Shown in pieces: positions 3,100 through 47,209 of a DNA stretch of 50,946 nucleotides. The translations under genes were made by a program, and so were the position numbers. Within the stretch, counting starts at the first letter, position 1; each line of letters begins with the position of its first letter. The notes under the pieces were generated by a model that worked only from the letters and a program-made list of their open reading frames with translations, did not search any database and was not told where the DNA came from. Source of the stretch: Clostridiales bacterium (GTDB lineage: Bacteria > Bacillota > Clostridia > Christensenellales > UBA1242). Location: positions 62,001-112,946 of the forward strand of contig SVIS01000003.1 in the NCBI GenBank assembly GCA_015069385.1, in the 5' to 3' direction.

Positions 3100-3345
3100 A
3101 TATTTTTTGAGTTTTACAATACTTCCATATTGTAAAAATAGTTAAAGACAAGTAGTGCTATTACAATTCGCACAGAGAAGGGTTGGTTGGTGAAAAACCT
3201 AAGATAGTTTTAGTATGAAACCACTTTATGCATCTATTTTTAGTAATATTTAAAGAGTGGAAAGTTTTAAACTTTCAAAAAAGGTGGAACCGCGGTTTTT
3301 AAAATCGTCCTTTGTTTTATGGCAAGGGCGGTTTTTTTGTTTACC
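3100..3345 (+). promoter_or_regulatory. T-box riboswitch leader upstream of thrS
   Basis: The conserved T-box core 'AAGGTGGAACCGCGG' lies at 3281-3295. It is followed by a GC-rich hairpin and U-run ('ggcaagggcggtttttttgtttaccctgccc') overlapping the annotated ORF start. The position upstream of an aminoacyl-tRNA synthetase gene fits. A Thr codon ACC occurs in a candidate specifier region near 3200. Confidence 0.6.
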
Positions 3346-3387
3346 CTGCCCTTTTCAATAATTAAGGAATTAAAAGGAGAATTTAAA

Positions 3388-5136
3388 ATGGAACAAAATG
3401 AAAAACAAGAAAAAATGCAAATGTGCCGTCATAGCCTTTCGCATGTGCTTGCAAAAGCAATCAAAAATTTATATGGTAATGAAAATGTAAAACTTGCAAT
3501 TGGTCCTGCAATTGACAATGGTTTTTATTACGATTTTGACATGCCAAGCATAACTGCCGACAAATATGACGAAATTGAAAAAGAAATGAAAAAAATTCTA
3601 AATGCCAACGAGCCATTTAGAAGAGAAGAATTATCTAGAGAACAAGCCTTAGAATTATTTAAAAATGAGCCTTATAAGGTAGAACTTATTAACGACTTGC
3701 CAGACGAAGAAACAATTTCTGTTTACTATTTAGGTGACAACTTTGTTGACCTTTGCCGTGGCCCTCATGTTGAAAACACTTCTAAATTGCAATCATATGC
3801 TTATAAAATAAACAGAGTTAGTGGCGCTTACTGGAAAGGTAGCGAAAAAAACAAAATGCTTCAAAGAGTATATGTTTATGCCTTCCCTGACAAAAAACAA
3901 TTAACTGAATATATTAACCAAATAGAAGAAGCAAAAAAACGTGACCACAGAAAGTTGGGCAAAGAATTAGATTTATTCTTCTTTGATGAAACTGCTCCGG
4001 GCATGGCTTACTGGCTACCAAAAGGCTTTACAATGATGAACACTTTAATCGACTTTTGGCGCAAAGAGCACAAAACAAGAGATTATCTTGAGTTCTCTGC
4101 TCCACAATTAAACAGCAGTGTATTATGGAAAACATCAGGTCACTGGGACCATTACAAAGAAGACATGTTTGTTTTGACTGACGTTGATGGCAACGAGCAA
4201 GCGCTAAAGCCTATGAACTGCCCTAACAGTATTAAAATTTATCAAAGCAAAATGCGCAGTTATAAAGACTTACCTCTTCGTTTAAACGATATTGATGTTA
4301 TTCACAGAAACGAAAAATCTGGTCAATTAAATGGTTTGTTTAGAGTTAGAATGTTCCGTCAAGATGACGCACACAACTTTATTCGCCGTGACCAAATTGG
4401 CTCAGAAATTAAAAGCATTATAGATTTAATCAACAAACTTTATGGCGTTTTTGATTTACCACATATTTTAACATTATCTACAAGACCAGAAGATTTTATG
4501 GGTGAAATAGAAACTTGGAACGAAGCCGAAAAAGAGTTAAAAGCAGTTTTAAACGACCTATGTGGCGAAAATAACTACAGAATTAACGAAGGCGATGGTG
4601 CTTTTTATGGTCCAAAAATTGACATTAAAATGAAAGACTGTTTAGGTCGTGAATGGCAAATGGGCACAATTCAGTTAGACTTCCAATTGCCAGAGCGCTT
4701 TGATTTAACTTATGTAGACAGCAACGGCGAAAAAGCCCGCCCTATTATGATTCACAGAGCAATATTTGGCTCATTTGAACGTTTTATTGGCATTATTACT
4801 GAACACTTTGCAGGTGCCTTCCCACTATGGCTTGCCCCTGTACAAGTAAGAGTTATGAACATTTCAGAAAACAGTGCTGACTATGCACAAGAAATTTTTG
4901 CAAAACTAAACGAAAAAGGTTTTAGAGCAGAAATTGATATAAGAAACGAAAAAATTGGTTACAAAATTCGTGAATGTGTAGGTCAAAAAATACCATACAT
5001 GATTATTGTTGGCGATGGCGAAAAAGAAAACGGAACTATATCTATTCGTGGAAGAGGAAATGAAAATCAATCCGGCTTATTATTAGATGACTTTATTGCA
5101 AGGCTACAAGAAGAAATTAAAACTTTTAAAAAATAG
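3388..5136 (+). CDS. thrS: Threonyl-tRNA synthetase (short form lacking the N-terminal TGS domain)
   Basis: Class II aaRS motifs and ThrS-specific segments are present ('FRVRMFRQDDAHNF', 'GPKIDIKMKDCLGREWQMGTIQLDF'), plus an anticodon-binding C-terminus. The true start is taken as the ATG at 3388 after the RBS 'aaaaggag'. The track ORF start at 3319 lies inside the T-box terminator. Confidence 0.9.
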   Translation: MEQNEKQEKMQMCRHSLSHVLAKAIKNLYGNENVKLAIGPAIDNGFYYDFDMPSITADKYDEIEKEMKKILNANEPFRREELSREQALELFKNEPYKVELINDLPDEETISVYYLGDNFVDLCRGPHVENTSKLQSYAYKINRVSGAYWKGSEKNKMLQRVYVYAFPDKKQLTEYINQIEEAKKRDHRKLGKELDLFFFDETAPGMAYWLPKGFTMMNTLIDFWRKEHKTRDYLEFSAPQLNSSVLWKTSGHWDHYKEDMFVLTDVDGNEQALKPMNCPNSIKIYQSKMRSYKDLPLRLNDIDVIHRNEKSGQLNGLFRVRMFRQDDAHNFIRRDQIGSEIKSIIDLINKLYGVFDLPHILTLSTRPEDFMGEIETWNEAEKELKAVLNDLCGENNYRINEGDGAFYGPKIDIKMKDCLGREWQMGTIQLDFQLPERFDLTYVDSNGEKARPIMIHRAIFGSFERFIGIITEHFAGAFPLWLAPVQVRVMNISENSADYAQEIFAKLNEKGFRAEIDIRNEKIGYKIRECVGQKIPYMIIVGDGEKENGTISIRGRGNENQSGLLLDDFIARLQEEIKTFKK

Positions 5137-10975: not shown

Positions 10976-11822
10976 ATATAGCATTTATGGAGCAATTATT
11001 GGCGATGTTGCCGGCTCACACCTAGAAGTTTTAGAAATGAAAGAAAAAGAAAATGGCTACAAAGTAAGTAGCCAAAAAAGAGAAAAGGTTTTAGACCCAA
11101 ACACTATCCTTTTTACTGATGATTGCTCATTAACAGATGATAGCATATTAACAGTTGCACTTGCCGATGCCCTGTTAAATAACAAAGATTATTGTAAATA
11201 TTTAAAAGAATATGGAAAACAAGAAATTGACCTTGGTAAAGACAAATACGGCAGAAGTCGTTTTGGAAAATGTTTTTGCGAGTGGCTTAACGGTGATTTT
11301 ATAGGAAATAGTTTTGGTAATGGTTGCGCAATGAGAATATCCCCCATTGCTTATGCTTTCTCTAGCCTAGAGGAAACATTAAAAGAATGTAATAAAGCAA
11401 CAATATGCACGCATAATCATGAGGATTCTTTAAAATGTGCTAGAGCAGTTTGTGGAGCCATTTATTTGGCACGAACAAACAAAAGTAAAGAAGAAATTAA
11501 AAATTTTGTAGAAAAAGAACTAGACATTAAGTTAAATTTTGATTTAAAATATTTAAGAGATAATTACATATTTACATCAAAAGCAATTAATTCTGTTCCT
11601 CAAGCAATTTATTGCTTTTTGGTATCTAACTCGTTCGAAGAAACACTTAGAAATACCCTATCAATTGGTGGCGATGTAGACACAACAGCGGCAATATCAT
11701 GTTCAATTGCATCGGCTTTTTATAATATTCCTCAAAACTTTATAAATAAAGTAAAAGAATATATTAAACCTGAATATTTAAAAATTTTAGAACAATTTTC
11801 TATAACATATTTGGAGGCATAA
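10968..11822 (+). CDS. ADP-ribosylglycohydrolase family protein (ARH/DraG-like)
   Basis: Motifs 'IGDVAGSHLE', 'TDDCSLTDDSI' and 'GGDVDTTAAISCSIASAFY' are typical of ADP-ribosylglycohydrolases. Confidence 0.75.
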   Translation: MNKYSIYGAIIGDVAGSHLEVLEMKEKENGYKVSSQKREKVLDPNTILFTDDCSLTDDSILTVALADALLNNKDYCKYLKEYGKQEIDLGKDKYGRSRFGKCFCEWLNGDFIGNSFGNGCAMRISPIAYAFSSLEETLKECNKATICTHNHEDSLKCARAVCGAIYLARTNKSKEEIKNFVEKELDIKLNFDLKYLRDNYIFTSKAINSVPQAIYCFLVSNSFEETLRNTLSIGGDVDTTAAISCSIASAFYNIPQNFINKVKEYIKPEYLKILEQFSITYLEA

Positions 11823-12677: not shown

Positions 12678-12705
12678 GATGCTTTAATAAAAGCATCTTT
12701 TTTTA
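12677..12705 (+). terminator. Rho-independent terminator after the NrtR-like gene
   Basis: Hairpin 'aagatgcttt aataa aagcatctt' followed by T7. Confidence 0.65.
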
Positions 12706-12823
12706 AAATGCAAGAATAATACAAACGAAGAAAGTGTTTTCTTTTAAAATTGCCTCTTGAAAAACTTTTATAAGTGTGATAACATAAACTTGAATAAAAT
12801 CAATTTTTAAGGCAGGTATATTT

Positions 12824-14347
12824 ATGGCAAAACAACAAGTATATAAATTAGAAAACGGCTCTACTTTAGTTTATCAAAAACAAAGCGCTTTTAATGGCTA
12901 TTCGTTTGTTATTGGTTTTAGGGGTGGTTCCCAATTAGATGGCAAATATAAAGGTTTAAGCCATCTACTTGAGCATTTGCTTTTTAGAACACCAAACCCA
13001 AAAGCAAACAATATTTTATTAGATAACATTGTTAAATATACAGTAAGCCAAAATGCTACAACAACTCAGAACTCTATTTCAGTGGAGTTTTCAACAGTAT
13101 ATAAAAATGTTGATGCAGCGCTTGATAATTGCATGTCTAATTTGCTTACTAGAAAAAAATTCACAAAAGAACAAATTGCTCGCGAAATAGAAATAGTTAA
13201 ACATGAAATTAATATGGTTAAAGATGAAGAAGACTTAGATATGCCTACTGCGCTAGATTGTTTAATAGAAAATTTAGTAAAAAATCCTAATGATTTTTCT
13301 GATACAGACATTTTGGGAAATAGCCGCACTTTAAACATGGTAACTCCAGAAATTTTAACTAACTACGTAAAAAAATATTTTAATTTAGACAATTTAATTG
13401 TATCGGTTACAACAAATAAGTCAATTGAAGATGTTGTTGAACTTTGCAATAAACATATATACCCTAAACTCAAAAATGCTTCTAGTCCAAAATATATTGT
13501 TCCGGCACCAAAAGAAAAACAATTCCTTGAAAAAAATCTTCTTGTTGCATTACCAGATGATTTAACAAAAAGCCTTTCTATTTGTTTACTTTTGCGCGAG
13601 CGCTCTGGTAAAGCAGAAGACATTAATTTAGAATATGCTTATGATATTATTGAAGAATATTTAATTAATCATATGGGTGGCATGCTTTGGGATTCACTCA
13701 GAATGAAAAATCAATTAGTTTATTTAAGCGCATTATATAATTTAAATTTTGACACAGTTAAATTAAAGGCATTTACTGCACTTACAACTGCTCCAAAAAT
13801 GCGTAAAACAATTTCTGAAATTTGTAAAATTATTCGTGAAATTGGCCTAAATGGTGTACCAAAAGAAAAGTTTGAAATGATTAAAAATGTTTTGTGTGAT
13901 ACAGAATCTGCAAACCTTAACAAATTAAAAAAGACTTCTGCTGCAGGCAACTTCTATAATGTTTTGTTTGAAAAAGAATTTATAGATTATAAAAAAGTAA
14001 ATTCTTACATTCAAAAAATGACATGGGAAGAATTTAACCAACATATAATGCCTATTTATTCTGCAGCAAACGTATCTTGTGCAATTCAAGGCAATTTTGA
14101 TGCTCGAAAATGCTATACATTAATAGAAATTGAAAAAATGCTTGGAAATTATTCACATGTAGAATTTGAAAAACAATTAAATCTTCCTCGCATTGAAGAA
14201 ACTCCTATCGTTCAAGATCCAATGCAAGCTTTTGCAAAAATGCTTGGCGTTGACTCTATTGAATTTGAATATGAAACTGAAAATACTGAAGAAAAAAAAT
14301 CTACCCCCCCCCAAGCAGTCACAATCGACAACGAGGTAATCAAATAA
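12824..14347 (+). CDS. M16-family (pitrilysin/insulinase-like) zinc peptidase
   Basis: Inverted zinc-binding motif HxxEH ('HLLEHLLF'). 507 aa. A C9 homopolymer lies near the 3' end at 14304-14312. Confidence 0.7.
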   Translation: MAKQQVYKLENGSTLVYQKQSAFNGYSFVIGFRGGSQLDGKYKGLSHLLEHLLFRTPNPKANNILLDNIVKYTVSQNATTTQNSISVEFSTVYKNVDAALDNCMSNLLTRKKFTKEQIAREIEIVKHEINMVKDEEDLDMPTALDCLIENLVKNPNDFSDTDILGNSRTLNMVTPEILTNYVKKYFNLDNLIVSVTTNKSIEDVVELCNKHIYPKLKNASSPKYIVPAPKEKQFLEKNLLVALPDDLTKSLSICLLLRERSGKAEDINLEYAYDIIEEYLINHMGGMLWDSLRMKNQLVYLSALYNLNFDTVKLKAFTALTTAPKMRKTISEICKIIREIGLNGVPKEKFEMIKNVLCDTESANLNKLKKTSAAGNFYNVLFEKEFIDYKKVNSYIQKMTWEEFNQHIMPIYSAANVSCAIQGNFDARKCYTLIEIEKMLGNYSHVEFEKQLNLPRIEETPIVQDPMQAFAKMLGVDSIEFEYETENTEEKKSTPPQAVTIDNEVIK

Positions 14348-25168: not shown

Positions 25169-25777
25169 TTATTTTAATAATTTTTCTAATTTTCTTTTTG
25201 TTCGTGCAATTGCATTATCAACTGCCTTTGTAGTAATGTTAATACGTTTTGCAATTTCAAAATAAGAATAGCCACTTAAATAAAGTTGCAACACCCTTTT
25301 TTCTTTTACCGAAAGGTTATTGTTTATTGCCTCATTTAATTCAACTTTTCGCTCTTCTTGCAACATTATATCTTCGGGATCAAGTATGCCAGATGGAATA
25401 TATAAACTTATTTCTTCATCATCTTCATCTTTGCCTTCCATTACTACTGCACCTTGGTTATTTAAAGTCAAACTTTCATTTAGTAATTTATTTTTTAATC
25501 TATTTGCCTTTTTTACAGCCGTTTGAATTGATCTGGTTATACACAAAGTTGCAAAAGATTTGAAACTTGAATATGCTTCGTCATATGTTCTACAAGCACT
25601 ATAAAGTCCAAGCATAGCTTCTTGCAAAATATCTTCACCTTCAGCGCCAATTAAAAAATAACTTCTAGCAATTTTACTTGCAAGCAGTTTATATTTAGAC
25701 AACAAAAAATCTAGTGCTTTTTCATCACCACTTTTATATCTTTTTAAAATTTGCTCATCAGATAATTTACTATACAA
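25169..25777 (-). CDS. sigH: RNA polymerase sigma factor SigH (sigma-70 family, sporulation/stationary phase)
   Basis: 'RSYFLIGAEGEDILQEAMLGLY', 'FATLCITRSI' and the region-4 'LYLSGYSYFEIAKRIN...AVDNAIARTKRKLEKLL' closely parallel Bacillus SigH. Sits downstream of rlmB. Confidence 0.8.
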   Translation of the reverse strand: MYSKLSDEQILKRYKSGDEKALDFLLSKYKLLASKIARSYFLIGAEGEDILQEAMLGLYSACRTYDEAYSSFKSFATLCITRSIQTAVKKANRLKNKLLNESLTLNNQGAVVMEGKDEDDEEISLYIPSGILDPEDIMLQEERKVELNEAINNNLSVKEKRVLQLYLSGYSYFEIAKRINITTKAVDNAIARTKRKLEKLLK

Positions 25778-25804: not shown

Positions 25805-26524
25805 TTATCCACGTTGTCTTACAATTTCATAAACTACAACAGCCGTTGCTACACTGGCATTTAAACTATTAACGCTACCTTTTAATTTTATAGATAGTGT
25901 TGCATCACAAAGTTCACGAGAAAGCCTACTAACTCCCTTACCTTCGCTTCCAACCACAACAGCAATTGCACCTTTAAGATTTTGAGAAGTCATTTCTTGA
26001 CCACCTGTTTCTAAACAATAAACCCAAATGCCTTGTTTTTTTAATATTTCTATTGTGTTGTTAATATTTCCAACTCTAGCAATAAGCATATTTGTTGCGG
26101 CACCCGCACTTGTTTTAAGTACTGTATCATTAACGGCACAAGCCCTATGCTCTGGAATAATAATTCCATGCACACCGGCACATTCACACGTTCTAATAAT
26201 TGCACCAAAATTATGCGGATCCTCTATACCATCTAAAATTACAATAAAAGCATCTTCACTTTTTTGTTTTGCTATGTTTAAAATATCTTCCACCTCGCAA
26301 TACTCAAACTCGGTAGTGTAACAAACAAAGCCTTGGTGTCTGTTAGAAGTTTTTTTATCTAACATATCTTTAGATACAAAATCAATGCGAATACCCTTTG
26401 ACTTTGCAAGTTTAATTATTTGATTACTTGCGTTATCTGTTAAATTGTTTTGTACAAACATTTTATTAATTGTTATGTTGTTTTTAAGTGCCTCTAAAAC
26501 AACATTTTTACCCTCTATAATCAT
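25805..26524 (-). CDS. rlmB: 23S rRNA (guanosine-2'-O)-methyltransferase, TrmH/SpoU family
   Basis: SpoU MTase motifs 'IVILDGIEDPHNFGAIIRT' and 'GSEGKGVS'. Confidence 0.8.
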   Translation of the reverse strand: MIIEGKNVVLEALKNNITINKMFVQNNLTDNASNQIIKLAKSKGIRIDFVSKDMLDKKTSNRHQGFVCYTTEFEYCEVEDILNIAKQKSEDAFIVILDGIEDPHNFGAIIRTCECAGVHGIIIPEHRACAVNDTVLKTSAGAATNMLIARVGNINNTIEILKKQGIWVYCLETGGQEMTSQNLKGAIAVVVGSEGKGVSRLSRELCDATLSIKLKGSVNSLNASVATAVVVYEIVRQRG

Positions 26525-26533
26525 ATTAACCTC

Positions 26534-26935
26534 TTATTTTTTTAATATTTCTTCAAGTCTGTTAAAGTCACCTTTTAAATATAAATATCCTACAAGGGCT
26601 TCAAAACTTGTTGCTTTTTTATATGTTTCTAAATCGCTATTTTTTGCAATGTTGTTTGTTTTTGCGTTTCTAGCACGACGTACAATGTTTTGTTCGTCCT
26701 CATTTAACATAGGTAAAATTTGCTGCAACTTAATTGCTTGGCTTTTTGCATTGCACTCTTTTGCACTATGCCCATGACACGACCCGACAAGCATGTTGCA
26801 ATTTTTAACCACTTTGTCACGAACAAACAATGTATGCACCCCATCACCAATAAAAGCAAGAACAATTGGATTAAGTTCTTTAATTTCGGCAAGACTAAGT
26901 GAAGGCATAAATAAATCTTGTAAATTTTGTGACAT
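26534..26935 (-). CDS. mrnC: Mini-ribonuclease III
   Basis: 133 aa. The RNase III-like signature 'LAFIGDGVHTLFVRD' matches the YazC/Mini-III type. Confidence 0.75.
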   Translation of the reverse strand: MSQNLQDLFMPSLSLAEIKELNPIVLAFIGDGVHTLFVRDKVVKNCNMLVGSCHGHSAKECNAKSQAIKLQQILPMLNEDEQNIVRRARNAKTNNIAKNSDLETYKKATSFEALVGYLYLKGDFNRLEEILKK

Positions 26936-27129
26936 AATTATTCCTTTTATTCCAAAAATATTTTAAATCTTTTTTACAATTTTTACAATAGATTTTTGCA
27001 TATTGCATTAACATTTAATTATTTGAATAAATACAAATTTAATATGAATAAATTATTCGTGCATTTTTTAATTACATTTTTGCAAACATGCTCCGCAAAC
27101 CGAAATGTTTTTCACGAAAATAAAGGAAA

Positions 27130-27253
27130 TGGGGATAAGTTTTAAAAGTTATCCACATTTCCACAAACTAATGTTTATACATTTTAGTTAATAATTATTC
27201 AATTTTTATGCAAAATGGGCAAATTGGGGATAAATATGGAGAAGTTATCCACA
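27130..27253. promoter_or_regulatory. Cluster of four consensus or near-consensus DnaA boxes next to an AT-rich tract (candidate oriC segment or DnaA-box cluster)
   Basis: TTATCCACA at 27149-27157 and 27245-27253. TGGGGATAA (reverse complement of TTATCCCCA) at 27130-27138 and 27225-27233. The boxes form two convergent pairs inside a roughly 35-bp direct repeat. A highly AT-rich stretch lies at 26940-27060. Confidence 0.55.
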
Positions 27254-27365
27254 TTTCCACATTAAATGTTTGAAAAATTTTAAAATAGTATTGTATTTTA
27301 CTTGACACCACTATATGTTGGGCTGTTTGTCATAAAACTCAAAAGTTTGTCAAATCAAACATTTT

Positions 27366-28070
27366 TTATAGCGGCTTAACTCTTGGCAGGTTTTTGCTTC
27401 TAGGATATTTTGTTGGTGTAGTTTTAACTTTGTCAACAACTACAAAAGCACGCTCAGCATCAATTTCTTCAATAAACACTTTTTGTACTTGTTTAACCTT
27501 TCCTCCTAAAAGTTCTATTGCATTTTTAGCAAGAAGAATCTCCTCTTCGTAGTTGCTACCTTTTAATGCTACAAATTGCCCACCTAATTTTACAAATGGA
27601 ATACAATATTCGCTTAAAGTATTCAACCCTGCAACAGCGCGAGCAACAGCAATATCAAACTTTTCTCTATTAGCCAAAGCATAATCTTCGGCTCTTGCAT
27701 GAATTGCTTGTATATCTTTTAGTCCAAGTGAATTTATAACCATATTTAAAAAGTTTACCCGTTTGTTTAAACTATCTAACATAACAATATTAAGGTCTGG
27801 GCGAATTATTTTAAGAGGAATACTAGGAAACCCTGCGCCAGCGCCTATATCAATAACACTTGAACCTTTTTTTAACAAAGCATGTGGCAAACAACAATCT
27901 AAAAAATGTTTTATTGCAAAATCTGATTTTTCTGTAATTGCCGTTAAGTTATATTTTTTATTTTCTTCAATAACTAGGTTATAAAACATAATAAGTGAGT
28001 CAATTTGTTGTTGAGTAACATCTATATTATATTTTTTAAAAAGTTCGCTTAAAAGTTGTTCCATAAACAA
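27366..28070 (-). CDS. rsmG: 16S rRNA (guanine527-N7)-methyltransferase
   Basis: GidB family, with the SAM motif 'VIDIGAGAGFP'. Confidence 0.85.
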   Translation of the reverse strand: MFMEQLLSELFKKYNIDVTQQQIDSLIMFYNLVIEENKKYNLTAITEKSDFAIKHFLDCCLPHALLKKGSSVIDIGAGAGFPSIPLKIIRPDLNIVMLDSLNKRVNFLNMVINSLGLKDIQAIHARAEDYALANREKFDIAVARAVAGLNTLSEYCIPFVKLGGQFVALKGSNYEEEILLAKNAIELLGGKVKQVQKVFIEEIDAERAFVVVDKVKTTPTKYPRSKNLPRVKPL

Positions 28071-28075
28071 TCCTT

Positions 28076-29932
28076 TTATTTAATTGATTTTAAATAGATT
28101 ATTAAAACAGAAATATCTGCAGGGCTAACACCGGAAATTCTTGAGGCTTGACCAACATTTAGTGGACGAATTTTATCTAATTTTTCTCTTGCCTCCATTC
28201 TAAGACCCTTTAAACTTAAATAATCAATATTTTCAGGAATTTTAATTGCTTCTTGTTTTAAAAGTTTAGCGATGTCTTCATCTTCTTGTGCAATGTATCC
28301 CTCATATTTAACTTCAGTGTTTACATATTCTAAAATTCGCTTATCGTAATTAGTAAACAAACCATAATATTCTTCTATATCAAAAATATTAATATTGCTG
28401 CGTTTTATCGCTTTTTTAACACTCATTCCAACCGTAGGAGCACTTTCACCTTTTGCTTTAAAAAGCGCAAAAAGAGTATCATCTAATTTTAGTTTTGTGT
28501 CTAATAAAGCCTTAACCTTTAAAACCTGTGCTTGCTTTTGTTTAAATGCATTATACCTAACATCATTTACAAGCCCAATTTTTCTACCTATTTCAGTTAG
28601 CCTTACATCAGCATTATCTTGCCTTAACACAAGCCTGTATTCAGCTCGAGACGTCATCATTCTGTAAGGCTCGTTTGTGCCTTTTGTTACTAAATCATCA
28701 ATTAAAACGCCAATATATGCCTCGTTACGCTTTAACACTAATTGCTCTTTTTCTTCTAAAGCAAGTGCGGCATTTATTCCAGCAATAAGTCCTTGCGCAG
28801 CAGCCTCTTCATAGCCGCTTGTGCCATTTACTTGACCAGCAAAAAATAAATTCTTTACTAATTTACTTTCAAGCGTTGGTTTTAACTGGGTGGAGTCAAT
28901 AGCATCATATTCGATTGCATAAGCATCACGCATTAGCATTGCGTTCTCTAACCCCTTAATGCTTGAATACATTAACTTTTGAACATCTACCGGAAGCGAA
29001 GTAGAAACGCCTTGAACATAATATTCATTAGTGTTTAACCCTTCGGGTTCTAAAAATATTTGATGCCTATCTTTATCTGCAAATCTTACAATTTTACTTT
29101 CTATGCTAGGGCAATATCTTGGACCAACCGAAGATATTTCCCCATTATACATAGGTGCTCTATTTAAATTATCTAAAATAATTTTGTGAGTGTTTAAATT
29201 TGTATAAGTTAAATAACAACAAGTTTTATTTTCAGGTGTTTGCTCACTTAAAAAACTAAAACTTTGAATATTATTATCACCTTTTTGGATTTCCATAGCA
29301 GAAAAATCAATTGTTCTGCCATTTAATCTTGCAGGGGTACCTGTTTTAAATCTTATAATACTATGCCCTAAACTTGCAAGGCTTTCTGTTAAATCTTCTG
29401 CTCTTGAAAAGCCGTTTGGACCAACGTTTTTAGAATACTCACCAATAATAATTCTACTTTTTAAATAAACCCCTGTAGCAACAACAATTGTTTTAGCATA
29501 ATATGTTTCACCCTGCTGAGTAACAACACCACTAACTTGCCCACCTGCAGTTAAAATTTGTTTTACTTCGGCTTGTTTAATAAATACATTTGGCTCATTT
29601 TCAAGCACTCGTTTCATACGATTATGGTATTCTTGCTTATCGACCTGTGCTCTTAACGAATAAACGGCTGGACCTTTGCCTGCATTTAACATTCTAATTT
29701 GAATGCTTGTAGCATCGGTATTAATACCCATTTCGCCACCAAGAGCATCAATCTCACATACCAAATGTCCTTTAGCCGTGCCCCCTATGGATGGATTGCA
29801 TGCCAAAAAAGAGATAGCATCTAACGATATTGTTAATAATGCCACTTTGTGTCCTTTTCTTGCAAGGGCCAAACAAGCCTCTACACCTGCATGTCCAGCG
29901 CCTATTACTATGGAATCAAATTGTTCGTTCAT
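28076..29932 (-). CDS. mnmG: tRNA uridine 5-carboxymethylaminomethyl modification enzyme
   Basis: FAD-binding '[11 protein letters not shown]'. 618 aa. Pairs with rsmG as in other bacteria. Confidence 0.9.
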
Positions 29933-31972: not shown

Positions 31973-33301
31973 CTACGCAATTACTAGTTTAAATGCTGGA
32001 CGAACGCCACAGTCAATATCGTCGTATACACTGCTAAGGTCTATATCACCATCACTGTATACACACCTCACGCAAGAGTCGTTGTTTGATGGGGAACATG
32101 CGAGAGGCGAACGTAACCACCAACAATCGACAGACCCCTCTAATAGTTTTGCTCCACCTTGTGCCGTAGTAAATAGCCCAGTATATTCTAATGTGCTTAA
32201 TAGCCATAATGATTGATTTATAGTTGATTGTGAATATGGTGTTGCTATTATTCGTCCATTTGTGTCATCTTTGTCATATTCTTCACCACCAAGCGTTCTT
32301 GTAGTTATTTGGCTATATACTCCTGAATATTTCTCTGCACCAAAGTTATATTTTGTATATAATCCTGTTGTTCCGTTTACATAGTTTTGTATGGTTGAAT
32401 TGTTATAGTGAATACCATAGTCATTTGCTTCTGTACAATTTTCACTTTCATTAAACGCTATATAGTCACTATCTGTATTTTTTAATATGTATTCTGATAT
32501 AAAGTAGTATGTTCCTGCTGGAACGTTTGTAGAAGTTGTATCAGTAAAAGTATCTACTGCTACCATGCCATCTTCGCCTACTGCATCGCTGCCTGTTGCA
32601 CTATAGGCAAAAGCATACCAGCGAAGGGCTGTGCCGTTTTCATCTTCACCCATCTCTACATAGAGTTTTGTTTTTGCTTTTTCTGTTTCATCTACTAGGC
32701 CTGTCATTGCTCCAGTTTTTAATACCTTTCTATCAAATGTGTATTTTTTAAACTCCATATTGGCGGAGAAATTTGCTTCAAAGTCTCCTATTGTTTCTAT
32801 ATCTAACAATGTAAAGGTTATTGTTAAGTCTTCCTTTTGTGCATCTTTTGCTAGTGTAAATGATTGGGCTGACGTTACTCCGCTTATTGAGGTTATTTCC
32901 TCTGTGCTTGTTGTATCATATGCCACTGGGTTTGGTATGTTACATACTATTGTATAGTCTGACATGTTTGTTATTGTCATTTCTATTACTACTGTGTTTC
33001 CATCGTTTGCTAAGTCTGTAAATGCTAGGTCTGTTCCAAATGATTGGCTCTTTGTTATTTCCTCTGCTGTGCTTCCGCCAACTATTACACTACCCGTTGT
33101 TTCTGTTTTGGTTGTTGTGTTTGTTTTAGTATACGAGGTTACTGTATAGTCCACTTGTACTTTACAATTATGCGCTGTAAAGCCTATTGTTCCGGTGGCG
33201 GTAAGTGAGGCTTGTTTGGCTGCATATATGCCTATTGCCATGGCACATATGCATAAACATATTGCTACTATGTTTATTAGCCATTTATAGTTCTTCTTCA
33301 T
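31973..33301 (-). CDS. Variable surface protein, paralog A (signal peptide, variable Thr/Ser-rich middle, conserved C-terminal domain ending CGVRPAFKLVIA)
   Basis: The first 44 aa and the C-terminal block are identical to the ORF at 42718-44010. RBS 'aagaggag'. Confidence 0.6.
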   Translation of the reverse strand: MKKNYKWLINIVAICLCICAMAIGIYAAKQASLTATGTIGFTAHNCKVQVDYTVTSYTKTNTTTKTETTGSVIVGGSTAEEITKSQSFGTDLAFTDLANDGNTVVIEMTITNMSDYTIVCNIPNPVAYDTTSTEEITSISGVTSAQSFTLAKDAQKEDLTITFTLLDIETIGDFEANFSANMEFKKYTFDRKVLKTGAMTGLVDETEKAKTKLYVEMGEDENGTALRWYAFAYSATGSDAVGEDGMVAVDTFTDTTSTNVPAGTYYFISEYILKNTDSDYIAFNESENCTEANDYGIHYNNSTIQNYVNGTTGLYTKYNFGAEKYSGVYSQITTRTLGGEEYDKDDTNGRIIATPYSQSTINQSLWLLSTLEYTGLFTTAQGGAKLLEGSVDCWWLRSPLACSPSNNDSCVRCVYSDGDIDLSSVYDDIDCGVRPAFKLVIA

Positions 33302-42717: not shown

Positions 42718-44010
42718 TTATGCTATTACTAGTTTAAAAGCTGGACGAACACCACAATATAAATAAGAGTTTTTTGGTCCACTGAAATTAAGATTACCAG
42801 ACTCCGTCACAACCGATATTCGAGATTCAATACCAGCAGTTTGAGTTGTGCGTAACCACCAACTTTTATTAGAACCACCAAGCGAGCTTGCCTTACCTTG
42901 CACCGATGAGAATAGACCGCGATATTCTGATGTGCTTAATAGCCATAAAGATTGATCTATAGTTGATTGTGTTGTTGGGTTTGCTATGGTTTCATAATTT
43001 GAACCAAACTCTATATATTGCTCACCACCAAGCGTTCTTGTAGTTATTTGCCCATACACTCCTGAATATTTGTCTGCACTAAAGTTATATTTTGTATATA
43101 ACCCTGTTGTACCATTTACATAATTTTGTACGGTTGAATTGTTGTAATTTACGCTACCTGTTGAATCAAAATCAATACTGTCACTATCAATATTTTTTAG
43201 TACATATTCTGATATAAAGTAGTATGTACCTGCTGGAACTGATGTAGAATCTGTTGCTGTAAACTCATCTACTGCTACCATGCCATTTGCACCTACTTCT
43301 TCGCTGCCTGTTGCACTATAGGCAAAAGCATACCAGCGAAGGGCTGTGCCGTTTTCATCTTCACCCATCTCTACATAGAGTTTTGTTTTTGCGTTTTCTG
43401 TTGTATCTGGTAAGCCACTCATTGCTCCAGTTTTTAATGCACTTCTATCAAATGTATATTTTTTAAACTCTAGGTTTGCATCAAATATTGCTGATATTTC
43501 TGAGGCGGTTTCTATGTCTGTTAAAGTGAATTTTATTGTTATATCTTTATACTCACCTTTTGTTGATAATACAAATGATTGGTGTGAGGTTACTCCTTGT
43601 ATTGTTGTTATTTGGGTTGTTGTACTATTTGAATCATACGCTACTGGGTTTGGTATGTTACATAGTACTGGAAAGTCTGAGTCGCTTGTTATTTTTAAGT
43701 TTATTGTTATTGTATTTCCTTCTTCTACCAAATCACTAAAGTACATTGCTGGAAGAGGTAGTTCTTCTCCTTCTTCATCTACTAGTGTTTCTGCTATTGT
43801 TGCTTCTGTTCCTGTTAGTTTTGTGGTGAAATCTTCATCATATGCATCTATTGTTCCTGACACCTTTACCTTACAGCCATGCGCTGTAAAGCCTATTGTT
43901 CCGGTGGCAGTAAGTGAGGCTTGTTTTGCTGCATATATGCCTATTGCCATGGCACATATGCATAAACATATTGCTACTATGTTTATTAGCCATTTATAGT
44001 TCTTTTTCAT
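42718..44010 (-). CDS. Variable surface protein, paralog B
   Basis: 430 aa. Its N-terminal 44 aa and the C-terminal 'CGVRPAFKLVIA' are identical to paralog A, and the middle has diverged. Confidence 0.6.
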   Translation of the reverse strand: MKKNYKWLINIVAICLCICAMAIGIYAAKQASLTATGTIGFTAHGCKVKVSGTIDAYDEDFTTKLTGTEATIAETLVDEEGEELPLPAMYFSDLVEEGNTITINLKITSDSDFPVLCNIPNPVAYDSNSTTTQITTIQGVTSHQSFVLSTKGEYKDITIKFTLTDIETASEISAIFDANLEFKKYTFDRSALKTGAMSGLPDTTENAKTKLYVEMGEDENGTALRWYAFAYSATGSEEVGANGMVAVDEFTATDSTSVPAGTYYFISEYVLKNIDSDSIDFDSTGSVNYNNSTVQNYVNGTTGLYTKYNFSADKYSGVYGQITTRTLGGEQYIEFGSNYETIANPTTQSTIDQSLWLLSTSEYRGLFSSVQGKASSLGGSNKSWWLRTTQTAGIESRISVVTESGNLNFSGPKNSYLYCGVRPAFKLVIA

Positions 44011-44167: not shown

Positions 44168-44947
44168 ATGGCACATTCTTATAAAGGAGCAATTTCATTT
44201 GGCTTGGTATATATTCCAATTACCTTAAGTGTAAGTGTAAAACAAAATGATATTGGTTTTAATATGCTCGATAAAAACACTATGAGTAGAGTAAAATATA
44301 AAAAAACTTGCGTGGATTGTAAAAACAAAGAGGTTAAAAATGAAGACATTGTAAAGGGTTATCAATATCAAAAGGGCAAATATGTAATTTTTACTGATAA
44401 AGATTTTGAAAAAATAAAATCACCAAAAGATAAAAACATTGTAATTGAGCAATTTGTTAACTTAGAAGAAATTGACCCAATATATTTTGACAAAGCATAT
44501 TATGTTAAACCATCTGGTGCTGATAAAGCATTTAATGTTTTACTTGCAGCCATGGAAAAAGAAAAGAAAGCCGGCATTGCCAAAACAGTTCTCGGTACTA
44601 AAGAAACACTGTTTTTAATTAGAGCAAAAGATGGCAAAATGTATGCAAGCACAATGTATTTTAAAGATGAAATTCAAAAATGCGAAGAAGTTAAAAAAAG
44701 CAAGATTGATAAAAAAGAATTAGATCTTGCAATAAATTTGATTAACCAAATGACTTCAAAATTCGCTCCTGAAAAATTTAAAGATGAATATACCGAAAAA
44801 ATAAAAAAAGCAATTAAGCGAAAAATTTCTGGAAACGATATTGTGGCAACATCAGAAAAGACTGAACAAAACAATGTTATTAACTTAATGGACGCTCTTC
44901 AAAAAAGTTTGTCTGGCACAAAACTTAAAGCAGGAGCAAGCAAATGA
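44168..44947 (+). CDS. ku: Ku protein (NHEJ DNA-end-binding)
   Basis: N-terminus 'YKGAISFGLVYIPITL' is the bacterial Ku signature. 259 aa. Confidence 0.85.
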   Translation: MAHSYKGAISFGLVYIPITLSVSVKQNDIGFNMLDKNTMSRVKYKKTCVDCKNKEVKNEDIVKGYQYQKGKYVIFTDKDFEKIKSPKDKNIVIEQFVNLEEIDPIYFDKAYYVKPSGADKAFNVLLAAMEKEKKAGIAKTVLGTKETLFLIRAKDGKMYASTMYFKDEIQKCEEVKKSKIDKKELDLAINLINQMTSKFAPEKFKDEYTEKIKKAIKRKISGNDIVATSEKTEQNNVINLMDALQKSLSGTKLKAGASK

Positions 44948-46374
44948 GTTTAGAAAAATACAACGAAAAAAGAGATTTTTCTCAAACTAAAGAACCAAAA
45001 GGCATTACAAAAAAAACACAATCTAAAAGTCTTAAATTTGTAATTCAGTTTCATAGAGCAACCACAGACCACTACGACCTACGTCTAGAATATAATGGGG
45101 TACTTCTTAGTTGGGCTGTGCCAAAAGGGCTTTCCACTAATCCAAATGTTAAACGGCTTGCTGTTATGGTTGAAGAACACCCAATAAAATATGCCGATTT
45201 TGAGGGTGTAATTCCTAAAGGTAATTATGGTGCTGGTGTTGTTGAAATTTTTGATAGTGGAACTTACGAGCAAACTGAAGACTTTAAGTTAGGTTTAAAA
45301 AACGGCAATTTGAAATTTTTCCTTAATGGAAACAAATTAAAGGGTTTGTGGACATTAGTAAAAACCGACAAAAACAACTGGCTTGTTATAAAAATTAATG
45401 ATAAATTTACAAAAAAAGAAGAAAAAACCTCAAAAAAACCTAAAAATCCATTCAAAAATGTTCCTGTAATGTTGGCAACACTATCTAATAATATACCAAC
45501 AGGAAAAGATTGGTTATTTGAAATAAAGTATGATGGCTATAGAATCACAGCATACAAAAGCGACAAAAGTGTGCAACTTTTTTCTCGTAATGGAAATGAT
45601 TATTCTAAAAAATTTTCATCTATTGTTGAAAGCGTAAGCCAAATTGCAAAAGATATTCCCTTTGTTTTAGATGGTGAAGTTGTTAGTTTTAATAAAGATG
45701 GTGTTTCTGATTTTTCTCTCTTGCAACAAAATATTAAAAGCAGTAATGATAATTTTAGTTATGTAGTATTTGACCTGCTTGCTCTAAACGGAAAAGACCT
45801 TCGCAATACTCCCCTAATAGAAAGAAAAGAATATTTGAAAAATATACTCGAAGGCACAGATAATAAAATAATTTATAGCACTCATGTTATTGGCAATGGT
45901 AAAAAATGTTTTAACTTAGCAAAAAAATTAAATTTAGAAGGAATTGTTGCTAAAAAAATCAACTCAACATATGTTGGTAATCGCAATGAAGATTGGCTAA
46001 AAATTAAATGTTATAAGCGCCAAGAATTTATAATTATTGGTTTTACTACAACTGAAAAAAACAAAATATTAAGTGCAATTTTGGTGGGTTTTTATAAAGA
46101 CAACGCACTAATTTTTGCCGGTAAAGTAGGCACCGGTTTTTCAGAAAATATGAAAAAAGAACTTGTTTCTAAGTTTAAAAAAATTGAAACAAATACTTGC
46201 CCACTTGCAGAAAAAATTGATATAAAAGCCAACTGGTTAAAGCCTAAACTGATTGCTGAAATAAAGTATGCTGAATTTACCAAAGACGGACTCCTTCGTC
46301 AGCCAAGTTTTGTTGGCTTAAGAGAAGATAAAAAACCTAGTAATGTTGTTTTGGAGGAAAAAGGTGGAAGTTAA
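44944..46374 (+). CDS. ligD: ATP-dependent DNA ligase LigD (phosphoesterase domain plus ligase domain)
   Basis: PE-domain 'FVIQFHRATTDHYDLRLE' followed by the ligase motif I 'KYDGYR'. Overlaps ku by 4 bp. Confidence 0.85.
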   Translation: MSLEKYNEKRDFSQTKEPKGITKKTQSKSLKFVIQFHRATTDHYDLRLEYNGVLLSWAVPKGLSTNPNVKRLAVMVEEHPIKYADFEGVIPKGNYGAGVVEIFDSGTYEQTEDFKLGLKNGNLKFFLNGNKLKGLWTLVKTDKNNWLVIKINDKFTKKEEKTSKKPKNPFKNVPVMLATLSNNIPTGKDWLFEIKYDGYRITAYKSDKSVQLFSRNGNDYSKKFSSIVESVSQIAKDIPFVLDGEVVSFNKDGVSDFSLLQQNIKSSNDNFSYVVFDLLALNGKDLRNTPLIERKEYLKNILEGTDNKIIYSTHVIGNGKKCFNLAKKLNLEGIVAKKINSTYVGNRNEDWLKIKCYKRQEFIIIGFTTTEKNKILSAILVGFYKDNALIFAGKVGTGFSENMKKELVSKFKKIETNTCPLAEKIDIKANWLKPKLIAEIKYAEFTKDGLLRQPSFVGLREDKKPSNVVLEEKGGS

Positions 46375-47209
46375 AATTGATGGAATTACAATAACTAATC
46401 CTGACAAAATAATATATCCTAAAGAAAAAATAACAAAACTTGATGTAGTTAAATATTACAAAACAGTTGCAAAATATATGCTTCCATATTTAAAAAATAG
46501 AGTACTTTGTGCCATTAGGTGTCATGGCGGAATTAATGAAGAATGTTTTTTTAAAAAACACCCCACTACCGAAACGGAAAATGTAAATACTATAAAAATA
46601 AATGGCGAAGAATATTTTTATATAAAAACCGAAAAAGACATAATTTATCAGGCACAAATGGGCACGCTAGAATTTCATACTTGGGGAAGCAAAATAAAAT
46701 CAATTAATAACCCTGACTTTATGATTTTTGACTTAGACCCAGCAACAAATGTTAATTTACAAAAATTAAGGCAAGGTGTTTTGCTCGTTAAAGAAATTCT
46801 AGACAATTTAAATTTAAAATCGTATTTAAAAACAAGCGGTGGAAAAGGTTATCATATTGTTGTGCCTTTTGCAAAATGCAAAAATTGGCAAAGTTTTAAA
46901 CATTTTTCACATAATATTGCTCTTTTATGTGAAAAATTACACCCTACTCTTTTTACAACTTCTATTCGTAAAAAAGACCGAACTGGCAAAATTTTTGTTG
47001 ATTACTTAAGAAACGAAAAAGGCTCAACCTGTGTTTGTGCATATTCGCTTAGGGCGCGAATTGGTGCCCCTGTATCGTTGCCAATTTCATGGCAAAATTT
47101 AAATAAGATTACACCAAACGAAATTAATATGCAAACTGCACTTAAACTAATTAACACTCAAAATCCTTGGAAAAATATTTATGAAACGAATCAAAGTTTA
47201 AATAAATAA
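46364..47209 (+). CDS. LigD polymerase/primase domain protein (separate Pol subunit)
   Basis: LigD-Pol-like sequence. The likely GTG start at 46364 follows 'ggagg'; the track ATG at 46343 overlaps the ligD 3' end. A bidirectional terminator lies at about 47215-47250. Confidence 0.7.
   Translation: MEVKIDGITITNPDKIIYPKEKITKLDVVKYYKTVAKYMLPYLKNRVLCAIRCHGGINEECFFKKHPTTETENVNTIKINGEEYFYIKTEKDIIYQAQMGTLEFHTWGSKIKSINNPDFMIFDLDPATNVNLQKLRQGVLLVKEILDNLNLKSYLKTSGGKGYHIVVPFAKCKNWQSFKHFSHNIALLCEKLHPTLFTTSIRKKDRTGKIFVDYLRNEKGSTCVCAYSLRARIGAPVSLPISWQNLNKITPNEINMQTALKLINTQNPWKNIYETNQSLNK

Follow-up and report, generated by a model that had tools for sequence, protein, structure and literature searches.

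The intergenic region and its DnaA boxes

The DNA analysed in this study, referred to as the window, is a stretch of 50,946 bp. It closes a metagenomic contig of 113 kb, which belongs to a metagenome-assembled genome (MAG) of an uncultured member of the Clostridia. The window ends on the predicted origin side, and the contigs that carry this region all end at the leucine-rich repeat (LRR) gene at its right end. The region studied is the 430-bp intergenic stretch at positions 26936-27365, which lies between mrnC and rsmG and contains a cluster of DnaA boxes upstream of the operon mrnC-rlmB-sigH. The cluster appears to be a module of approximately 150-220 bp with two putative DnaA-binding units, each built on a predicted high-affinity tandem pair of boxes.

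Matches to the DnaA box with at most one mismatch were counted over the whole window. Four of them lie within 124 bp of the intergenic stretch and include the sole two perfect boxes of the window. A two-mismatch box, ATTTCCACA, comes after each perfect box and makes it a 17-bp tandem pair. The boxes are as follows.

27130-27138, minus strand: opposite DnaA box of unit 2, TTATCCCCA, one mismatch, 10 bp from the pair
27149-27157, plus strand: perfect DnaA box of unit 2, TTATCCACA, from the box scan
27149-27165, plus strand: tandem DnaA-box pair of unit 2, TTATCCACATTTCCACA, from the box scan, the direct repeat and the lineage alignment
27225-27233, minus strand: opposite DnaA box of unit 1, TTATCCCCA, one mismatch, 11 bp from the pair
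27245-27253, plus strand: perfect DnaA box of unit 1, TTATCCACA, from the box scan
27245-27261, plus strand: tandem DnaA-box pair of unit 1, TTATCCACATTTCCACA, perfect box 27245-27253 plus two-mismatch box 27253-27261

Each unit of the window is composed of three boxes, namely the tandem pair and one opposite box 10-11 bp away, and the two units are 96 bp apart. Read in the direction of the genes, the pair of unit 1 is TGTGGAAATGTGGATAA. An earlier note on this DNA had described four boxes within approximately 125 bp, two perfect and two on the opposite strand, held in a direct repeat; all of this was borne out, and the repeat measures 41 nt with 76% identity and a period of 96. The description of the boxes as two convergent pairs, on the other hand, has to be corrected, because each opposite box faces its pair with its 5' end; i.e., the 5' TTAT ends face each other, the boxes point apart, and the pairs are divergent.

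The window contains 17 boxes at the threshold of one mismatch against 16.5 expected by chance, and the opposite boxes of the cluster are 2 of its 15 one-mismatch boxes. Since the total is at the chance level, the unusual feature is the clustering only. The window was simulated 300 times with a first-order Markov model; three boxes per 125 bp were the most that any simulation reached (5 times), and four boxes occurred in 0/300. Over the window as a whole the box density is not above background; the local clustering is. The Mackiewicz definition of oriC (at least three boxes at a mean spacing below 100 bp), in the form in which a passage of PMC7561715 quotes it, describes this cluster of 4 boxes in 124 bp. 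Dense high-affinity boxes in an intergenic region, the hallmark that we took for a B. subtilis-type cluster outside oriC, are likewise present.

Conservation of the module across lineages

The loci of relatives, designated L001 and so on, were fetched by RsmG and RlmB homology, four of them by RlmB homology alone. Both 17-mers are found in 10 lineages at a distance of 95-97 bp, exactly in nine and with one substitution in unit 2 in L152. The pair of unit 1 is identical in all 10 related lineages. The position of the unit 1 opposite box is occupied by TTATCCACA, TTACCCCCA, TTGTCCACA, TTGTCCATA or TTATCCACT in 9 of 10 relatives, and L094 has no recognisable opposite box there. At unit 2, the opposite box of the relatives is degenerate yet box-like; across the family, the opposite box lies 10-12 bp from its pair.

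The proteins encoded next to the module are far less well preserved, with identities among module carriers down to 46-47% for MrnC, 58-64% for RlmB and 51-53% for SigH, and the intergenic sequence around the module diverges freely. A count over 199,747 bp from 10 lineages gave 26 perfect DnaA boxes, of which 26/26 lie inside the module and 0 elsewhere, and the four loci fetched purely by RlmB similarity all contain it (4/4). Conservation at the same locus in related genomes, which we used as a mark of a cluster outside oriC, was thus observed in ten lineages. A repeat or mobile element was considered as the source and rejected, since the 17-mer occurs only twice per locus and there is no perfect box elsewhere in 200 kb. 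We conclude that the cluster is genuine, selected and outside oriC.

In L085, a looser double unit with a spacing of 105 bp is found. Spacings of 95-97 bp and 105 bp correspond to approximately 9 and 10 helical turns, from which we infer that both pairs lie on one face of the DNA. The same locus contains an open reading frame (ORF; L085:53-577) with a TilS C-terminal domain at its end, which shares its first 30 residues with the downstream hisS (781-2061); the double unit may be flanked by a duplicate of the 5' end of hisS, or the assembly may be chimeric there.

Association of the module with the mrnC operon

The genes on either side of the intergenic region are as follows, and their identities as given in the earlier note are all correct according to Pfam and NCBIfam.

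28076-29932, minus strand: mnmG (Pfam/NCBIfam)
27366-28070, minus strand: rsmG (Pfam/NCBIfam), upstream neighbour in the window and no constant partner of the module; the called start is 6 nt past a TTG start
26534-26935, minus strand: mrnC, mini-RNase III (Pfam Ribonuclease_3), first gene of the operon
25805-26524, minus strand: rlmB, 23S rRNA Gm2251 methyltransferase (Pfam; NCBIfam TIGR00186, 233.7 bits, above the cut-off)
25169-25777, minus strand: SigH-like sigma factor (Pfam Sigma70_r2 and r4_2), 27 bp past rlmB

The best NCBIfam matches of the SigH-like factor are SigH equivalogs at 173 bits, under the cut-off of 208 bits. Its gene is probably cotranscribed with rlmB. There is no yacP between the two, as the earlier note had pointed out, and the next gene is a tRNA-Arg on the minus strand.

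The gene upstream of the module is rsmG in six lineages (window, L001, L024, L026, L151 and L152), an NAD-dependent epimerase gene in L086, a Na/Ca exchanger gene in L153, a cation ATPase gene in L154 and ytxC in L094. Further neighbours are mnmE in L152 and rpsL-rpsG-fusA in L154; these genes and mnmG-rsmG are origin-proximal in B. subtilis. The downstream operon always begins with mrnC-rlmB or, in L094, with metG-mrnC-rlmB, and mrnC orthologues were identified downstream of the module in 9 lineages. No module follows rsmG where the next gene is an Rce1-like gene (L025) or parA-parB (L027). The varied upstream genes and the constant mrnC operon show that the module belongs to the downstream mrnC-rlmB operon, not to rsmG, and that its upstream edge is a recurrent breakpoint. 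The cluster had been linked to mnmG-rsmG in the earlier note; this link does not hold, because the module travels with mrnC-rlmB (L086, L153, L154 and L094 versus L025 and L027). The synteny breakpoint claimed there is real insofar as the upstream edge is a recurrent one, but it is not a recent local rearrangement, since both the lack of yacP and the rsmG-mrnC junction are common to several lineages.

Terminator-like hairpin, candidate promoters and conserved blocks

In the direction of the genes, the module takes the order upstream block, spacer, unit 1, AT-rich spacer with TTATGCATAA, unit 2 and CTTTATTTT, followed by a variable stretch of 24-300 bp, a sigma-A promoter and mrnC. The features in the window other than the boxes are the following.

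27281-27325, minus strand: conserved block upstream of unit 1 (CCCAACATATAGTGGTGTCAAGTAAAATACAATACTATTTTAAA), containing a -10-like TA(C/T)AAT
27166-27224, no strand: inter-unit spacer, 81% AT, holding conserved blocks
27117-27162, minus strand: terminator-like feature on the gene strand, i.e., the unit 2 hairpin (27125-27162, free energy of -14 kcal/mol) and then a T-run
26960-26988, minus strand: candidate mrnC sigma-A-type promoter TTGTAA-17-TAAAAT, 24 nt before the start codon

A stable hairpin directly before a T-run on the transcribed strand, the usual form of an intrinsic terminator, is found at unit 2. The T-run is CTTTATTTT at 27117-27125, with the tail TTATTTTC. The simple terminator scan missed the hairpin because its stem has an internal mismatch. 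A hairpin with a T-run, at -10 to -20 kcal/mol, occupies the same place in 7 of 11 lineages (the window, L026, L086, L151, L152, L153 and L154), and a weaker one is present in L001 (-5.3 kcal/mol); the pairing registers differ between lineages. The terminator scan of the window found no second terminator between rsmG and unit 1.

In L001, L086 and L151, a promoter similar to that of the window lies equally far downstream of unit 2 (153-162 nt; four lineages including the window), and L153 has TTGACA-17-TATACT 47 nt beyond unit 2. Overall, 7 of the 10 scanned loci have a sigma-A promoter past unit 2 (window, L001, L026, L085, L086, L151 and L153). Another candidate promoter, between the units of the window (TTGAAT-17-TATAAA), was not relied on, as its -35 is not conserved and its -10 has no final T. 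The AT-rich tract at 26940-27060, put forward in the earlier note as an unwinding element, is indeed rich in AT (85% versus 70% in the window, top 1% of 121-bp windows); however, it contains the sigma-A-type promoter and leader of mrnC and is without conservation among the relatives, and the proposed unwinding function is not supported.

Two blocks are conserved in the inter-unit spacer, TT(A/T)TGCATAAAAA and AAAATG(T/A)ATAAA(C/T)AT, the latter just ahead of unit 2. The former corresponds to the palindrome TTATGCATAA in several relatives; it is degenerate in the window at 27200-27212 and occurs three further times between unit 2 and the promoter in L151 (5152-5595). The 45-bp upstream block is kept in the window, L001, L024, L026, L086 (where the upstream gene is different), L151 and L152 and is separated from unit 1 by an AT-rich, non-conserved spacer of approximately 25 bp. 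On the minus strand, the block reads ACATAT-N14-AATACAAT, which may resemble a sigma-E-type sporulation promoter, a likeness that we treat as a lead. In five lineages, heptamers similar to the Spo0A box occur at distances of 93 and 73 nt upstream of unit 1, namely at 27330-27360 (minus strand) in the window and at equivalent positions in L001, L024, L026 and L152; L001 and L026 have a perfect TGTCGAA, and the others deviate from it by one mismatch.

These features raise the question of whether the conservation has a cause other than DnaA, such as a small RNA extending from the upstream block to the unit 2 hairpin and T-run or the site of another protein, e.g., Spo0A. The conserved -10-like TA(C/T)AAT before unit 1 and the terminator-like end after unit 2 would suit a small RNA, and the Spo0A box TGTCGAA resembles TGTGGAA, with 0A-like boxes at -93 and -73 from unit 1 in the five lineages. 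We nevertheless judge such a cause improbable. No known RNA family or riboswitch was matched in the region by Rfam at E ≤ 1, and RNAalifold gave 0 compensatory pairs among 34 predicted, with an unfavourable covariation term of +4.3. A structured small RNA was rejected for this lack of covariation, and the lack of compensatory changes and of an Rfam match indicates that the invariant part is a DNA site, not an RNA. Spo0A boxes were set aside as the cause, since their enrichment is weak (7 matches in 6 close loci versus approximately 2 expected). Moreover, the invariant part is exactly the 9/9 DnaA box in the arrangement of true origins, and the upstream block is missing from L153, L154 and L094, all of which retain both units.

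The cluster is not a replication origin

It is very improbable that the chromosome is replicated from this region, either as a complete origin or as half of a split oriC that has become separated from dnaA; oriC and part of a split oriC were among the possible readings of the earlier note. The idea has some appeal: the tandem box pair is the same as that at the unwinding side of Firmicute origins, an AT-rich stretch follows each pair (27166-27224, 81% AT; 27262-27300, 90% AT), and mnmG-rsmG are typical genes of the origin region.

The strand asymmetry argues otherwise. To the left and right of the site alike, the sliding GC skew has negative values, and the cumulative curve keeps falling as it passes the site. 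The GC skew at third codon positions was split by gene strand and side in order to separate replication bias from coding bias. To the left of the site, it is -0.289 for plus-strand genes and +0.126 for minus-strand genes, and to the right, the values are -0.200 and +0.041, respectively. The minus strand is thus G-rich, i.e., leading, on both sides, and replication forks cross the site in the direction of transcription. In the window and in L026, L153 and L154, the genes keep one direction across the site, and nearly all of the window genes at 14-44 kb are on the minus strand. Neither a switch of polarity in the skew nor a divergent orientation in the gene strands was found at the site. In its right half, the window has a single reversal of gene orientation, next to a non-homologous end-joining operon (44168-47209), which consists of Ku, LigD (phosphoesterase plus ligase) and the LigD primase-polymerase.

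The genes of an origin are also missing. A tblastn search with B. subtilis DnaA, a query that detected dnaA in 20 other loci, gave no match anywhere in the window or in the family loci (266 kb). Neither dnaA nor dnaN lies within 10 kb of the module in any lineage. None of dnaA, dnaN, parA, parB, noc, jag and mnmE is among the Pfam-scanned ORFs of the window, which cover approximately 10-51 kb. No parS site within 3 mismatches was found in the window, and a parS/ParB centromere region was rejected on this ground.

Clostridial origins have 9-19 boxes in oriC1 and 5-9 in oriC2 (PMC7561715), compared with 4-6 boxes here. The basal unwinding system of Firmicute oriC2 comprises a box pair, a GC cluster, DnaA-trios and an AT-rich unwinding element (Richardson 2016/2019, as summarised in a section of PMC7561715). 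The loci were scanned for this succession, with three or more DnaA-trios of the form 3'-[G/A]A[T/A]-5' and a GC cluster required behind a box pair. None of the 22 family pairs is followed by a GC cluster, and the longest run of trios is 1-3, whereas 7 of 16 dnaA-adjacent controls clearly show the GC cluster and trios (L097, L124, L142, L134, L059, L065 and L081).

A metagenome scan with the exact 17-mer returned at least 120 loci, mostly unrelated, with three family members among the matches listed. The 17-mer adjoins dnaA, within a few hundred bp, in approximately 20 of the 120 matches listed, and in many of these a GC cluster and CTA/TTA trios follow. In L142, from a relative of Bacillus, GGGGTTATCCACATTTCCACA-GCCCC-TATTACTACTACTAT beside dnaA is followed by AT-rich DNA and then dnaN, a layout of box pair, GC cluster, DnaA-trios and unwinding element as in Firmicute origins (PMC7561715). 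The exact 17-mer TGTGGAAATGTGGATAA (L028-L147 scan) is thus a recurrent signature of true origins and could seed searches for their unwinding side.

For the site itself, oriC and split oriC are rejected on the grounds of the same skew polarity on both sides, the co-directional genes, and the lack of dnaA and of trios, an assessment made on contigs and not on a closed genome. The skew switch and the dnaA gene that the earlier note had named as checks on its proposal are absent, the former from the window and the latter from the window and the 266 kb of family loci; dnaN, parAB and parS are likewise absent from the window.

Two other lineages contain DnaA-box clusters of their own. In L027, where the order is rsmG-parA-parB, the stretch of 830 nt that follows parB (12694-13522) contains three perfect and two near-perfect DnaA boxes, together with three exact parS sites TGTTTCACGTGAAACA; parS also occurs at L027:10716-10731. 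This region may be an origin-proximal cluster or part of the origin in that lineage. L120 (40% GC; positions 3358-4230 and 11440-11500) has a classical dnaN-dnaA-oriC1 with at least 11 boxes, then rpmH, mnmE and mnmG-rsmG, and a separate DnaA-box cluster with the same 17-mer approximately 130 nt after rsmG. This second cluster lies past a clear terminator, between convergent genes.

Proposed role of the module

With moderate confidence, we propose that the region is a DnaA-box cluster outside oriC of the B. subtilis type that would serve as a cis-regulatory and insulating module for mrnC-rlmB-sigH. Its 17-mer is the box pair of bona fide origins beside dnaA, such as that of L142, and hence a known DnaA target, and the fact that the module is so strictly linked to the mrnC operon speaks for a function in cis. 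In the mechanism that we envisage, DnaA would bind both units cooperatively and bridge them, and the resulting stable nucleoprotein block would sit directly ahead of the sigma-A promoter of mrnC-rlmB-sigH. Transcription of the operon would then depend on the amount or state of DnaA, by way of either repression or activation. The block, together with the unit 2 hairpin and T-run, would stop read-through from the co-oriented upstream gene. As a side effect, the site would hold some DnaA away from oriC.

Several points weigh against this proposal. L094 has no sigH after rlmB, and the similar double unit of L085 precedes hisS, so the regulated function is not specifically SigH. The distance between unit 2 and the promoter ranges from 24 to approximately 300 nt across lineages, which fits poorly with a strict activator or operator geometry. 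The opposite boxes could be kept partly for the terminator hairpin rather than for DnaA, and the conservation of the boxes would also be explained by titration of DnaA alone.

Titration leads to the main alternative, possible but less likely: a DnaA-controlling site without a role in neighbouring transcription, which would titrate DnaA, as has been proposed for the B. subtilis clusters and E. coli datA, or alter the nucleotide state of DnaA in the manner of DARS; it would lie beside mrnC for historical reasons. Such a site is in keeping with the predicted high affinity of the boxes, their constant helical phasing and the conserved AT-rich spacer, to which a bending protein could bind, and each unit, with two boxes one way and one opposite, has the layout of the DARS core (PMC5742627). 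Deletion of the six B. subtilis clusters, which are mostly origin-proximal, leads to over-initiation (PMC3245932), and the similar cluster after rsmG in L120 lies between convergent genes and serves no promoter. However, the upstream neighbour was exchanged independently at least four times while the module kept its place in front of the mrnC operon, and the module is never found after rsmG alone; mere sequestration of DnaA needs no linkage to an operon.

A more far-reaching idea, which we regard as unlikely, is that DnaA binding directly upstream of the operon of the SigH-like factor would let the initiation status gate entry into sporulation via sigH transcription, or that the doubled three-box units would be a Firmicute counterpart of DARS or datA. 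In the sporulation variant, Spo0A may bind the neighbouring 0A-like boxes. To our knowledge, these spore-forming Clostridia lack Sda and the Bacillus phosphorelay.

If the proposed cis-regulatory module is real, its interest lies in the genes that it fronts, which serve 23S rRNA maturation and encode an early sporulation sigma factor. DnaA as a transcription factor is documented mainly in B. subtilis, E. coli and Caulobacter; a 2021 review of DnaA regulation makes no mention of Clostridia, sigH or rRNA genes (PMC8203912), and our literature search gave no publication that places DnaA boxes at sigH or mrnC in Clostridia. The module is a sharply defined and deeply conserved candidate DnaA target in uncultured gut or rumen Clostridia, in which the tandem box pair of origins is reused outside them without DnaA-trios. 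It is also a warning for origin prediction in MAGs, where box clusters alone mislead. Should DnaA indeed control sigH, replication and sporulation would be linked by a route other than Sda, i.e., by a rewired checkpoint.

Other features of the window

Directly upstream of the threonyl-tRNA synthetase gene (3319-5136), the window has a T-box leader at 3135-3315 (Rfam, 94 bits). Two paralogous DUF6273 proteins of approximately 430-440 amino acids are encoded at 31973-33301 and 42718-44010, and a third copy occupies the same relative place in L025 and L151.

Comparison with known systems

In B. subtilis, six intergenic clusters of boxes outside oriC are stably occupied by DnaA, which acts there as a repressor of ywlC and yydA and as an activator of sda; jointly, the clusters damp initiation (PMC2533591, PMC3245932, PMC8203912). 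Similar to these clusters, the module is intergenic, has several close boxes including perfect ones, is conserved among relatives and lies upstream of an operon. Several operons at the B. subtilis clusters encode enzymes that modify tRNA or rRNA, and ywlC, yydA, gcp and trmE are genes of this kind. The module differs in the operon (mrnC-rlmB-sigH), in the host (uncultured Clostridia), in the strict two-unit period of 95-97 bp, in the invariant 17-bp tandem pair and in the doubling of unit 2 as a terminator-like hairpin.

With Firmicute oriC2, the module shares an identical tandem pair, TTATCCACA(A/T)(A/T)TCCACA, followed by AT-rich DNA. Unlike oriC2, it has no GC cluster or DnaA-trios, lies away from dnaA/dnaN with no skew switch, and carries the pair twice in one orientation, with a box opposed to each copy.

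E. coli DARS1, DARS2 and datA are likewise non-coding DnaA-box clusters outside oriC (PMC5742627). The DARS core has three boxes, of which box I is opposed to boxes II and III (PMC5742627), an orientation of boxes that each unit repeats. In datA, the region between the boxes is bent by a protein. The E. coli sites are proteobacterial and depend on IHF and Fis, proteins that are not known from Firmicutes. The module, for its part, is associated with a promoter region.

At the B. subtilis sda promoter, DnaA boxes also lie upstream of a gene that governs entry into sporulation (PMC8203912). Here, on the other hand, the target would be the SigH-like factor itself, encoded by the third gene of the operon, and not a kinase inhibitor, and L094 has the module without sigH after rlmB. 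Finally, the oriCII boxes of Pseudomonas aeruginosa lie beside gidA/gidB and act in transcription, not in replication (PMC13438810); those boxes are upstream of gidA and regulate gidAB-parAB, whereas the boxes described here are downstream of rsmG (gidB) and are part of the next operon.

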